Shown here piece after piece: positions 1-56,860 of a stretch of 64,000 bases of DNA. The position numbers and the translations under genes are program-made. The stretch is from the NCBI GenBank assembly GCA_008632985.1, contig QPGO01000120.1, forward strand, positions 124,001 through 188,000, given 5' to 3'. The notes below the pieces were generated by a model that did not search any database, was not told where the DNA came from, and worked only from the letters and a program-made list of their open reading frames with translations. This DNA comes from Psammoneis japonica. Its lineage: Eukaryota. Position 1 is the stretch's first letter; each line of letters starts with the position of its first letter.

Positions 1-2381
1 CGCATCCAACACTATCCAGTCATCCAGCTCTTCCACAACATGGTAGACTTGAGAGCCAGCGGTCGAAAAACAGCTTGGTGCGTTCGAGAATGGACACTCG
101 GGCTGTCGACCGGTGCAAACTGCTGACCACACCACAACTGCAATGGATGGGACCATCCAAGACGCTGGAAACCCGTGCAAGGTTGGGAGTTTGCCCTGGC
201 GGTGTAGAGCTCAAGGGATGCTTGTGATCGGAGCAAAGCAAAAGTGCAGCGCCGTTTCCCAAAACATGGCGGCGAGCCAGAATGTGAATGGCTTGACCCG
301 TCCCAAGATTGATCGACGCGAAGTGGGCTCGTCTTCGACGTCCTCGTGACAATCATCCGCATCCAGGATCTCTGGATCGTAGAAATCGAAGCCACGACAT
401 GTGACACACGGAGGTGAGTCGTCGTTTGCGTCTTCAAAGTGTGCGTCATGTTCAAGGATGAGATCTGACTTTGTGTCGTCTGACAGCATGTCCGTCAAAT
501 TTGTGGGAGCGTCAAAGAACTCATCTGGATGCTTGACAGAGTGCAGCTTCAAGGCCGGAAACAACTCAACAGCCGGTGGTTCGTTTTCAAATGTAGAGAA
601 AGCGTTGGAGTGTTCGCAGAAGTCATCGGCGTCTTCGGGAGTGACAGTCTCAACCACGATGGGAGACACGACTGGATCCACAACTGAGGTGAGTGCAGGT
701 GGGCTCGTTTCGTTGCAAAGCACCTCCGTGCTAACGACTGCATCGCTCTCCCTCTCGGCCGAAGAAGCCAGAGCAACAATGATTGCAGCAGTGACAGGGT
801 CGGAAAAGAAATCCGGGTCGGCAACGGCATCCACAGCCGCGCACCACATTCCCGTGAAAACCAACTCGTTGGGGTCGGACTCATCTCCCTCTGGTTCCTT
901 GGCAGTCTGAGCTGGCGGACCCATGGGCACGCCACCATCCGGATCAGCAACGGAAGACAGATTCCCGGCTGGGGTTTCCTTGGGAGGATGCCTGTGGTCT
1001 TCGGTGTTTTCCACGGCAGAGTGCTTCTGGCAGATTCCAGGTTTTTGGCACCCTTCGCCTTGCACGTGGCACACCACTTCCACTCTTTGCCATTCTCATC
1101 CTTCTTTGTTTCTCCGTCAAATTTAATGCGCCAGGCAGTGATGGGTCTCCGCTTCTTCTTGGAAGGGTCGTCTGTGGGCGGCGGATTCGTGGGAGGATCG
1201 TCGCGCGGCGGTTTGGCATTGCACTTTGGGCACGTCTTCTTGGTGCACCCCTCAAGACCGCAACCATGACAGTGCTTCGTCTTCCCAGGGTTGTCCGTAG
1301 TCGAAAGATCACTCTCGGGCAGCTCAGTGACCAAAGCAGGCCACTCCCTGTCCTTCACGAGTTCATTGTGTTGCTCCTGAATCCACGCAATGATGCCGAC
1401 CGGTCCGAGCGTGTTGCAATCGCTGTCGGACGTGATGTCAGCAGGATTCTTGAGGCGGCACTTGCGTTCCATGGCCTTGACATCGTTGAGCTTGTTGTGG
1501 ACTCTCCGATTGAAGCATTCAGAGGACGCAGAGGAGATCTTGTGGAGTGGCTTGGAGCTTGTGTTCACCGGAAGCGCGCAGTTGGTCTGCACAATTTTTA
1601 CGATGTGAAGAGCTTCGGCAGCAAAGTCCGTGCAATCCTTGCTGGGACAGCCAGCCAAACTGAGGTCTTCTAGCTGCTTCTCAGCTGTCTCAATGTCCGT
1701 TAGAGCGCCAGCATTGCAAGCATCGAGAGCCATCATGAACAGAACAGATCCAGGGCAGTCTTGGCAGTCCTTGAGATGGTTGAACTTGGTCTCGATTTTC
1801 TCGCAAAAGGCATCAGTGATGCTTGAGTGAACAAGCAGCTGAGAGAGCCCGATGTCGTTGAGCTTGATCTCGTCGCACTTGGTGTCATCGGCAGCTGCTT
1901 TCCTGACCTTGCATTCATTCACGAGATCAGTCACCGTAAACTCGTGGAGATGTTCGAAGACATGTCGAACCTTGTCGTCGCTGTTCTTGACATGGCAGAA
2001 CGTCTGCTGACCGTGGGCTTCTGCTAGATCTCGAATGGTCTTGACGAAATGGTCCTTGTCAAGCTCGTTGATGGGACCGTCCGAAATCTCAAGTCGACCA
2101 TTGAACTTGGAAGTCATTGCGGAAGCTTGTTGATCGCGGAGAGATCGTTCCATCGAGTCGAGAGCCTTGGGATGACGGCGCTGAGAGGCAAACTGGCAGG
2201 TTCCATCATTGGATTGTTCACAGTTGTCGTCGAGTTTGGAGCCACCAATGTAAACCCCATGGGTTGGGTGAATTCCGCCACGCAACGGCTTGGTTGGAGG
2301 CGGAGGAGCGTTCGCTGCGGCGTCAGCGGCCATTGCATCGGCAAACGCCTTCGCCAGAACATCCGGGTCGATGGCAGCCAT
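1..2381 (-). mobile_element. Degenerate Ty1/copia (CoDi-like) LTR retrotransposon, gag region; continues off the left edge
   Basis: ORF 549..2381 has a zinc-knuckle-like CHGCGLEGCTKKTCPKC and a second motif KDENGKEWKWCATC that I recognise from diatom copia Gag, plus PGSVLFMMALDACN. Frameshift near 1040-1080 into ORF 211..1083. No pol domain or LTR could be delimited. Confidence 0.72.
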
Positions 2382-3197
2382 GACAGAGAGTGTGGCATGG
2401 GAGGTTCTTGTTAGAATGAAGACGAGAGAAGCGAGAGAGACTCAGCCATTTCCCGGGTTTGCTTCAAAATCAAAAACCAAAAGCGTCCGTGACGATGACT
2501 CGGTCAGGAGCTCTCGTCAACACGCAAATTGGTCTCCACAACCAGTCGAGATACAGTCCTGCAGCTGGTGGGATGGACAAGACCTCGGAGGTTGGCAGCA
2601 ATGTGAATGGCGACAGAGGTGAACAGACGCTTGTTCAAAGTCGTTGTCTAAAAATTGTGATGAATGTCGTTGTTTCTGTTTGAATCGATTTTGTGATGAG
2701 CCATTTATTTCGAAGAGAAAATCTGAGTCTGGGTTGCAGTCGTGAGATGCGACCAGAATGACGTTGAGTCATGGCTTGGATGAAACAAAAAATCAGGTGC
2801 ATTCTCCAATCCGCCTGTGGTCGTCTGCCGAATTGAAGAAGCACAATCTCGGCAGGGACTCGAAGCTCATGCAGCATCGCAAGGCTTGTTGGACAATTAA
2901 GAAACTGGGATTGCCGCCAGGTGATGTCAATCTCAAGCAGGCAGAAATGTTGTCAAAATGCAGTGAGCTCAAAAATGAAGCTCAAATTCAAAACCCGGAT
3001 TGGGAGAAGCTCGCGTCCGATGAGTGCAACAACAATCATTGCACGGGAGACTCGGCGAATCAAGATGGCAACCACTCAGTGAGGTGGCTGGTGGCACAAG
3101 TCTAAAATGGCTTTTATGTTCTGTGTTCTGTGTGAGACTTGGATCATCCACATTGAAATAAAACTGACAATCGCGAAGCAAATCGACTGGCATTGTT

Positions 3198-55379: not shown

Positions 55380-55914
55380 CAATGTTCTGATAATAATTAA
55401 AAAAAGAAACTAAATGTTATGGATCCCATGCCATAAATCACCTCACATGCATAGGAACCACAAGTGCCGTAGCTATTTGAACTTCGCAACAAAGAAGGCA
55501 TGGCTTTGGAAAGGGGGTTGTGACATTTCAATGTAACTTCAGCACAATCTTTTTTTTTCGTACCGACTCATTAGAACTAAAGGTCACTTGTTGAGCGTCG
55601 AGGAATGCTTGACGCGTATTGAAACCAACTGCAATAAGATCAATAATGGGAAAAGCAGAATTATTATTATTGTTTTGCTTTGGCCATGCAGTAAGAACGA
55701 CGACGCACTGCGACTGCTTGACTCTTGAAAACCAGTCATTTTGCCAGCTTGCGGCAAAGAAGTGTCCACGTGTGATGCTAGATCATTGTGGTTTTCTTGA
55801 AAAAAAATGTAGTCCAAATGACTCGGAAAATAATGAATGTAAATAGAGCGCACTGTCCCTGTTTCAAATCTCGACGTGTAGAACCGTGTGGCAGTGCCCC
55901 CGCAAAAATAATCT

Positions 55915-56860
55915 TTTGTGTGTTTTTGCTCCTCGCCACTGAGCAGACAAAGCCCTGTCTGCATTGACACTGAACCCACTCTCTCTTTTTATTTCACAGA
56001 AGAAACAGCAGGAGGCTTCCTCTCATCCTGGTCATCATCGTCCTCATTGCATCGAGGCCTTTTCTTCTTGGCATCGTCATCTTCCGGCAGTTCTTTTTGG
56101 CCCACTTCAAGTTGCGACTGCGCTGCTCCTTCATGAGACGCTTCTTCTGATCTTCCAATTGCTCTTTCAAATTGGCACCTAAAATCACATCCTCAGAACT
56201 GCCAGTCAAATCAGAGATGCCATTGCCACCAAATGCGTCTTCCGGGTCACCGGCGGCAGAGATTGAGCGAGTTTCTGCCATGGCGAACGACGCGACAATG
56301 TCCTTCTCATCATCGTCATGTGGCACTTTGTCTGTCATGTCGGGCGACACTTTGCAATGGATCCTGTTGGACACGGGCACTGTTGTCAATGAGCTCATGC
56401 TCCGGCAATCACTCTCTTCTCTCGGAGTGCTGAACATGGCCAGCAATCGATTTTCTTCTGGTGGTTGGTTGGGGGTTTTCTTGCTTCGCATTGGTTTGTG
56501 TCTTTTTTTGGCACAGCACACAGGGGACGACACACTCACACTCCAGCATGGCTGGCCAGCTGCTGGCTGAAAAAAGTCTGCTGTCCTTTGGGGTTTTTGC
56601 TGACACCAATTTGAAAATTGGGTTGGGGGAAGATAGACTCCTCCAGCTGCTGAAAGAGTCTGTCAATCTATGCGTTAGGGGGGTTTGGTGAACGCTGGAC
56701 AGACTCGTCTTCTTTTGCGTACGTAAAAATTGCACTGGCACAACCCCAAACGCACTGACGAGCAGACTTTTTTCAGCCTGTTGGCTGGCTGGAGGAGTCT
56801 TCCCGGGGGCTTTTCGCTTTTCCACTTTTCCACACAAAAAAAAACACCGCACGTGAAACA
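55915..56860. other. TpA-depleted block 7 (CpG partly retained)
   Basis: Very few TA in 55995-56630. Confidence 0.7.
55994..56539 (-). pseudogene. Gene-like ORF remnant in a small TpA-depleted island
   Basis: 181-aa ORF with plausible low-complexity and coiled-coil composition, no Tyr; family not recognised. Confidence 0.3.

Follow-up and report, generated by a model that had tools for sequence, protein, structure and literature searches.

The 64,000-bp stretch of Psammoneis japonica DNA analyzed here (assembly GCA_008632985.1, contig QPGO01000120.1, positions 124,001 to 188,000; hereafter the window, with positions counted from its first base) raises the question of why the dinucleotide TpA has nearly disappeared from seven long blocks that alternate with ordinary host genes. 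The explanation that we favor, at a probability of about 0.72, is TpA-specific transition hypermutation, acting at the DNA level and in place on discrete, silent, non-host stretches of this diatom genome. TpA would be converted to TpG by an A-to-G change, or to CpA by the same change on the opposite strand, until TpA was almost gone, and ordinary decay of CpG to TpG and CpA would be superimposed in the same domains. The process would act on both strands equally and keep to domain borders within tens of bases. Among its targets would be at least one dead element that has a tyrosine recombinase and a gag-like gene, some diverged repeats, and a large amount of DNA that defies identification.

The blocks were called with a two-state hidden Markov model (HMM) on TA density, and a 1-kb dinucleotide scan also gave seven of them. 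They sum to 32,587 of the 64,000 bp (51% of the window), in agreement with a first-pass annotation that had described seven nearly TpA-free blocks over about half of the window. The observed/expected ratio (o/e) of TpA was 0.03 to 0.08 across the seven blocks versus 0.51 to 0.69 in the seven interleaved segments (pooled, 0.05 versus 0.56), and the earlier description of the interleaved genes as TA bearing was therefore also accurate. The blocks retain 113 TAs, compared to ∼1,267 expected from the rate in the flanking DNA; a recount returned exactly the earlier figures of 14 TAs in positions 1 to 2400 and 2 in positions 43981 to 47640. The longest TA-free run, in block 5, is 2,259 bp (44923 to 47182); across 200 shuffles, the longest such run averaged 120 bp and never exceeded 180 bp. 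The borders of the blocks are sharp, being resolved to ∼40 to 80 bp, and adjoin intact host genes.

GC content was nearly the same in the blocks (0.49) as outside (0.475), and both TpG and CpA were in excess in the blocks (o/e, 1.79 and 1.69, versus 1.20 and 1.20 outside), as the first-pass annotation had noted. GC-biased gene conversion is excluded as an explanation because the change is dinucleotide specific and leaves GC content unchanged. In stop-to-stop open reading frames (ORFs) of at least 110 amino acids (96 from the blocks and 54 from outside), Tyr accounted for 0.11% of residues in the blocks versus 2.16% outside, Cys for 5.8% versus 2.7%, and His for 4.95% versus 2.95%. The block translations are thus Tyr poor with Cys and His roughly doubled, as previously described.

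The direction of change can be read from two ORFs in block 1. When 151 homologues of the recombinase and of the gag-like protein were used as tblastn queries, this locus was the only one recovered from the window. The probable tyrosine-recombinase ORF, P0122, has 188 homologues at an E value of ≤1e-3 (best, 1.4e-54). P0122 and its homologues have an HxxR box in common, in which H324 and R327 are invariant, and the phage integrase family PF00589 was detected below the cutoff in three of seven recombinase homologues scanned (E values, 0.0011 to 0.0048). None of the 433 residues of P0122 is Tyr, versus 12 to 18 Tyr residues in each of ten homologues. At the 11 alignment columns in which at least 40% of the homologues have Tyr, P0122 kept none, having instead Cys at four, His at three, Trp at two, and Phe and Arg at one each; 10 of 12 Trp columns were kept. 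At the catalytic position, nine of ten homologues have Tyr and P0122 has Cys, so this copy is dead. The gag-like ORF, P0121, has a single homologue, P0124 (E value, 2.9e-77; 38% identity), which itself has a near-threshold zf-CCHC match. The 13 aligned Tyr residues of P0124 are Cys or His in 8 cases in P0121 (seven Cys and one His), the others being Tyr (one), Leu (two), Ile (one), and Thr (one). Tyr is encoded by TAY, Cys by TGY, and His by CAY, and these Tyr replacements therefore correspond to TA-to-TG and TA-to-CA changes.

It might be argued that no mutator is required. The blocks would then be DNA of foreign or selfish origin that has always been poor in TpA, through the native composition of a virus or transposon lineage or through selection against TA, and the TG and CA excess would come only from CpG decay. 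Such an explanation gains from the fact that most of the block DNA has no identifiable origin and that CpG decay provides about half of the TG and CA gain. However, at 13 of 13 metagenome loci with relatives of the recombinase, which is the identifiable gene, TA o/e within the gene was 0.43 to 0.69 versus 0.06 in P0122, and homologues of the gene have normal Tyr. The family is thus not inherently TpA poor, which favors mutation. The first-pass annotation would have abandoned its proposal had relatives been equally free of TpA and Tyr; the 13 metagenome relatives are normal in TpA, and the ten homologues carry 12 to 18 Tyr residues each. Selection on function is likewise contradicted by the loss of the catalytic Tyr and by the broken gag-like frame. 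Searches of viral contigs found no relatives of the recombinase or of the gag-like protein, and in positions 1 to 5000, described below, TpA has been lost while CpG has been kept. An origin without a mutator is thus extremely unlikely. Among 129 public homologues of at least 150 amino acids, three (P0150, P0226, and P0232; 29 to 37% identity to the window copy) are Tyr free and have Cys or His at conserved Tyr columns, including the catalytic one, which indicates that independent TpA-erased copies exist elsewhere.

The timing of the change is evident from repeats within the blocks. Some block parts are diverged repeats of one another (71 to 83% identity), and block 2 has a repeat in common with positions 6515 to 7077 of block 1 (75% identity). 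Adjacent double differences between copies were counted and compared with column shuffles. CA in one copy opposite TG in the other was the commonest adjacent double difference in all four independent repeat pairs within blocks, making up 17 of 81, 15 of 52, 5 of 13, and 20 of 31 doubles (shuffle maxima, 7, 5, 3, and 6, respectively). The control pair, 11931 to 12265 and 19683 to 20080 in normal, TA-containing DNA (78 to 92% identity), had none in 35. Such doubles reflect independent conversion of one ancestral palindromic pyrimidine-purine (YpR) dinucleotide, and thus the change took place in situ, after duplication.

The change also affected both strands. TG and CA are about equally frequent in every block and follow each other in random order (runs z, −2.0 to +0.5), and strand-coordinated tracts were not found in any block. 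These results, together with the occurrence of both Tyr-to-Cys and Tyr-to-His replacements, indicate that both DNA strands were changed, which argues against RNA editing. The proposal in the first-pass annotation that TpA became TpG or CpA on either strand is in accord with the Tyr-to-Cys and Tyr-to-His columns, the CA/TG doubles, and the parity of TG and CA.

One form of RNA editing to consider is ADAR-like A-to-I hyperediting of double-stranded retroelement transcripts that were then returned to DNA by reverse transcription. ADARs prefer a 5′ U, as stated in the Discussion of a preprint on Bigelowiella natans (Mettrop et al., bioRxiv 10.64898/2026.01.13.699255), and block 1 does contain a gag-like ORF. 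However, there is no sense-strand bias, Tyr having become Cys at four columns and His at three, with TG and CA equally frequent. A reverse transcriptase domain was not found in the 249 block ORFs scanned (99 long and 150 of 187 short), although degraded domains could escape such a scan. Both tandem and dispersed copies diverged in place through CA/TG doubles, and the identifiable element is of the tyrosine-recombinase type. Passage through edited transcripts is therefore scarcely credible. Since no reverse transcriptase was seen, a difference that would set it apart from DIRS-type retroelements, the element of P0122 looks Crypton-like. The gag-like protein was absent from the 13 metagenome recombinase loci, and the two genes therefore need not belong to one element.

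CpG has also been lost from the blocks. CpG o/e was 0.17 to 0.58 in seven of seven blocks versus 0.95 to 1.04 outside. TA loss amounted to 3.54% and CG loss to 3.57% of dinucleotides, and the gain in TG plus CA (6.75%) equals 95% of the combined loss. The first-pass annotation was thus correct in assigning TG and CA excess to TpA loss but overlooked CpG decay, which accounts for about half of that excess. Cytosine methylation is present in the diatom Phaeodactylum tricornutum, according to PMC6604790. The loss of CpG with gain of TpG and CpA in every block resembles the decay of 5-methylcytosine (5mC) in methylated transposons, yet this decay is insufficient to explain the whole pattern. In positions 1 to 5000, TpA o/e per kb was 0.10 to 0.12 and CpG o/e per kb was 0.71 to 0.96, with dinucleotide losses of 3.25% for TpA and 0.17% for CpG. 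Because TpA is gone from this region and CpG is nearly intact, TpA erasure is a process separate from, and faster than, CpG decay, and the earlier argument that 5mC deamination cannot explain TpA loss is upheld. A further feature of block 1 is a set of tandem arrays at 5100 to 6600 with periods of 33, 36, 69, and 165 bp, which would encode Ser/Thr/Ala/Pro-rich repeats in several frames; CpG reaches its lowest level in the stretch that holds these arrays (o/e, 0.06 to 0.26), and they are TA free over 1,191 bp.

The first-pass annotation had further proposed that the process is directed at repeats, a proposal to which the copy numbers lend no support. In a public DNA run (X1), word depth over the blocks was ∼45 to 180, mostly ∼57 to 80, compared to ∼57 for single-copy genes, so that by k-mer depth the greater part of the block DNA is single copy. 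Some diverged repeat pairs are present in the blocks, and depth is mostly gene-like, which bears on any dependence on duplication. One element resembles a miniature inverted-repeat transposable element (MITE) and lies 180 bp away from a TpA-free block. Its word depth in X1 is ∼3,670, versus ∼57 for genes, and it retains 24 TAs (o/e, 0.72). High copy number alone thus does not trigger the process. The MITE may have escaped because of insufficient length or age or because it lies outside the chromatin that is targeted. One X1 contig joins position 43449 to position 43769 without the MITE, and the insertion is therefore polymorphic. We infer that targeting depends on a silent chromatin state or on foreignness and not on copy number.

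The TAs that remain might indicate the sequence preference of the mutator. RTAY accounts for 4 of the 113 residual TAs in the blocks versus 385 of 1,214 outside (Fisher's P, 6e-13), and YTAR accounts for 50 of 113 versus 199 of 1,214 (P, 7e-11). The most complete loss of RTAY, in which TA precedes a pyrimidine on either strand, and the best survival of YTAR may reflect a flanking preference. The chemistry would be deamination of adenine to inosine at 5′-TA in DNA, fixed as G at replication. In tRNA, the A34 target of the ADAT and TadA deaminases always follows U33. An ADAT2/3- or TadA-like enzyme is the tentative candidate for such a deamination, a chemistry that is our leading candidate, though held with less than even confidence. 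ADAT2/3 has been reported to act on DNA in Trypanosoma and amphioxus (cited in 10.64898/2026.01.13.699255). A bolder version would have one dual A/C deaminase remove both palindromic YpR dinucleotides, TpA and CpG.

The same products could arise from thymine chemistry, in which the T of TpA would be enzymatically modified (for example, hydroxylated by a TET/JBP-type dioxygenase to 5-hydroxymethyl- or 5-formyl-uracil) and would mispair with G, giving T-to-C changes. TpA is self-complementary, so a T-to-C change is an A-to-G change on the other strand, and the present data do not separate the two routes. In dinoflagellates, 5-hydroxymethyluracil is enriched at TpA, and oxidized thymines can mispair with G, both of which would suit a thymine route. 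On the other hand, we know of no such thymine modification in diatoms, and the window contains no TET/JBP gene. The authors of the B. natans preprint favor adenine deamination, as a proposal. Thymine modification thus seems unlikely, although it is the least improbable of the alternatives to adenine deamination considered here.

A sequencing artefact must also be considered. If TpA modification, along with 5mC at CpG, were misread in heterochromatin and the consensus resolved such sites randomly to TG or CA, the result would be a random TG/CA mix, sharp domains, and the Tyr-to-Cys and Tyr-to-His pattern. The sole DNA run found, X1, from which k-mer contigs were built, has no recorded platform and may come from the sample used for the assembly. 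X1 carries the blocks at gene-like word depth (∼57) with 0.6 to 0.7% other letters, and its contigs of 1.1 to 3.6 kb match the blocks with 3 to 10 other letters; in block 5, contigs of 1,090 and 1,483 bp have 6 and 10, respectively. Among a selected 40 of the 260 positions at which X1 contigs disagree with the window, a CpG or TpA context is frequent and CA/TG doubles number two, a count close to that expected by chance from the abundance of TG and CA. The agreement of the contigs suggests accurate reads, in which modified bases would not be misread, and the single-N joins beside 99.6%-identical duplicates suggest a scaffold of short reads. Furthermore, the three Tyr-free relatives among the 129 public homologues come from other data sets, and according to the preprint, Illumina sequencing of B. 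natans shows the same signature arising de novo. It is thus very unlikely that the pattern is an artefact.

Several observations nevertheless weigh against hypermutation of mobile DNA as the explanation. Pfam matches were absent from 97 of 99 block ORFs of at least 110 amino acids and from 148 of 150 shorter ones (62 to 109 amino acids; 187 in total). Block 1 alone could be tied to a mobile element, the six other blocks having no credible Pfam domain. A DNA-level ancestor or intact copy was not available for any block, and the A-to-G change at TpA was deduced from protein columns and CA/TG doubles rather than counted. The CA/TG doubles do not distinguish ancestral TA from ancestral CG, and the residual TAs may partly be new ones, formed from TG or CA, that would obscure the context preference. 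Because X1 may derive from the sample that was assembled and has no recorded platform, its agreement does not independently rule out a read artefact. The window contains no gene for a deaminase or other base-modifying enzyme, in line with the earlier statement that the responsible enzyme could not be identified in it. Finally, the term TpA has no occurrence in the main text of a mutation-accumulation study of Phaeodactylum.

The content of the blocks was previously described as transposon, repeat, and pseudogene DNA. This description fits the dead gene pair of block 1 and a few diverged repeat pairs, but the rest has no recognizable domain. The matches to DASH_Duo1 and DUF659, found in 2 of the 99 long block ORFs, were weak, below threshold, and look like chance, as do the weak matches in 2 of the 150 short ORFs. 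No homologue was found for the longest ORF of block 5 (44855 to 45691). The coordinates of the blocks and of other features are collected in Table 1.

Table 1. Positions of the TpA-depleted blocks and of individual features in the window
Feature	Position	Strand	Description
Block 1	1-10669		TA 51, o/e 0.08; CpG o/e 0.54; dead recombinase and gag-like ORFs, tandem repeats, unidentified DNA
Block 2	14072-17644		TA 19, o/e 0.08; CpG o/e 0.52; contains assembly join at N 16046
Block 3	25754-32269		TA 18, o/e 0.04; CpG o/e 0.17
Block 4	38027-41638		TA 9, o/e 0.04; CpG o/e 0.23
Block 5	43946-49657		TA 11, o/e 0.03; CpG o/e 0.18
Block 6	52177-53957		TA 3, o/e 0.03; CpG o/e 0.41
Block 7	55910-56633		TA 2, o/e 0.05; CpG o/e 0.58
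P0121, gag-like CCHC-knuckle ORF (block 1)	549-2381	-	Homology 850-2285; frame change near 1053-1071 (tblastn)
P0122, dead tyrosine-recombinase (Crypton-like) ORF (block 1)	3198-4499	-	Homology extends 3291-4688 (tblastn)
Tandem repeat units (block 1)	5367-5811 and 5883-6322		Divergence mainly by CA/TG doubles (20/31); shuffle mean 0.82, maximum 6
Start of block 4	38106-39247		Repeats the end of block 5 in diverged form; 17/81 doubles CA/TG; shuffle mean 1.88, maximum 7
MITE-like element	43450-43768		319 bp; 16-bp terminal inverted repeats (15/16 match), internal palindrome

The lengths of two blocks require a qualification. Single Ns occur at 16046 and 30752, each beside a near-identical tandem duplicate: positions 14926 to 16045 match 16047 to 17163 at 99.6%, and positions 30753 to 31264 match 31088 to 31615 at 93%. 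The probable cause is a scaffold join or a failure to collapse alleles, which would inflate the block lengths there. CpG-rich patches with low TpA lie just inside block edges at 17400 to 17644 and 53800 to 53957, beside the starts of host ORFs; either they are promoters that are naturally TA poor or the TpA process extends to the gene start. Positions 56650 to 56780, immediately upstream of the GPN-GTPase ORF, had a word depth in X1 of 470 to 930, with loose ends on both sides, and are probably another small high-copy repeat, located at the border of block 7.

The segments between the blocks encode, according to Pfam, a cystathionine gamma-synthase, a GPN-loop GTPase, an M16 peptidase, a CXC-domain protein, a MOSC protein, and glycosyltransferases. 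The cystathionine gamma-synthase is 75 to 86% identical to its best matches, and those named to organism are all from diatoms (Trieres, Seminavis, Synedropsis, Minutocellus, and Attheya). In another run, X2, a 92-base interval (42358 to 42449) within the region of a glycosyltransferase-like ORF is missing; its ends are GT..AG on the minus strand. This interval looks like a spliced intron, so that X2, which carries the label "DNA?", is probably an RNA library. X2 covers the genes unevenly and most block bins not at all, which is not evidence that the blocks are silent.

The first-pass annotation knew of no description of such a system. However, the same signature is described in the 2026 preprint of Mettrop et al. 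(bioRxiv 10.64898/2026.01.13.699255), which reports that giant-virus and virophage DNA integrated in B. natans is hypermutated at TpA. Mutation-accumulation lines of that alga yielded 302 nuclear mutations, of which 231 were in two regions of integrated viral DNA; 230 of these 231 were A to G or T to C, all at TpA (10.64898/2026.01.13.699255). The rate was ∼6e-7 per site per generation, ∼1000-fold above background, and the genome contains 124 TpA-depleted, CpA- and TpG-enriched clusters that are enriched in transposon and viral domains and in unannotated ORFs (10.64898/2026.01.13.699255). A homologue of ADAT2 is proposed there as the enzyme, as a proposal only (10.64898/2026.01.13.699255). The preprint (10.64898/2026.01.13.699255) does not mention diatoms, and full-text literature searches found no report of TpA loss in diatoms.

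The P. japonica blocks and the regions described in the preprint have in common the conversion of TpA to TpG and CpA on both strands and the restriction of the change to discrete regions, apparently silent and of non-host origin, that are TpA poor and rich in CpA and TpG. Unlike B. natans, a chlorarachniophyte within the Rhizaria, the host here is a diatom and thus a stramenopile. Depletion in the window is near saturation, with o/e of 0.03 to 0.08 over 51% of its length, compared to a Rho of 0.45 given in the preprint for the giant-virus region of B. natans. The identifiable target is a tyrosine-recombinase element here and a virus there. Strong CpG decay accompanies TpA loss in the same domains here, unlike in B. 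natans, and the process in P. japonica is read from the genome sequence. The signature as such was thus already described in 2026; its occurrence in a diatom, in far more complete form, appears to be new.

Repeat-induced point mutation (RIP), as known from ascomycetes, is similar in that regional, dinucleotide-specific transition hypermutation kills mobile DNA in place within sharp domains. The C-to-T changes of fungal RIP fall mostly at CpA; they therefore generate TpA and lower GC content, and the process depends on duplication. In the diatom blocks, in contrast, TpA is destroyed (o/e, 0.05 versus 0.56 outside) and GC content is 0.49 versus 0.475; the first-pass annotation had rightly noted that RIP runs in the opposite direction. 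Unlike 5mC decay, the process removes TpA, with CpG nearly intact in the first 5 kb. APOBEC3 and ADAR, which hypermutate retroelements and viruses, and ADAT2/3 similarly direct context-specific transitions against selfish nucleic acids, and a 5′ U or T preference fits ADAR and ADAT/TadA. However, the substrates of systems of the APOBEC3 and ADAR type are RNA or single-stranded replication intermediates, and the resulting clusters are strand biased, whereas both chromosomal strands are affected here and there are no coordinated tracts.

A broader interpretation, which we rate as close to but still short of an even chance, is that a mutator targeted to chromatin domains erases TpA to saturation from silenced mobile or foreign DNA in diatoms, that it is most likely an adenine deaminase related to the tRNA-A34 deaminases, and that, together with the B. 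natans system, it represents an old and widespread defense across the stramenopiles, alveolates, and Rhizaria (SAR). Such a mutator would outpace the decay of methyl-CpG and would not depend on copy number, filling a role like that of RIP with the opposite chemistry.

Regional, context-specific hypermutation as a defense is established for fungi, in the form of RIP, and for the antiviral deaminases of vertebrates. There is one prior report, from 2026 and in a chlorarachniophyte, of a counterpart that is directed at A/T, is specific for TpA, and affects resident chromosomal DNA. If our interpretation is correct, the process is not confined to one odd species, and the erasure of Tyr codons and catalytic residues would explain why much of the repeat DNA of diatoms resists annotation. 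Low TpA together with high TpG plus CpA would then be a simple marker of silenced DNA in algal genomes. The results would also point to a natural, context-specific DNA adenine mutator of relevance to base-editing enzymology, and the search for the enzyme could make use of those diatoms that are amenable to genetics.

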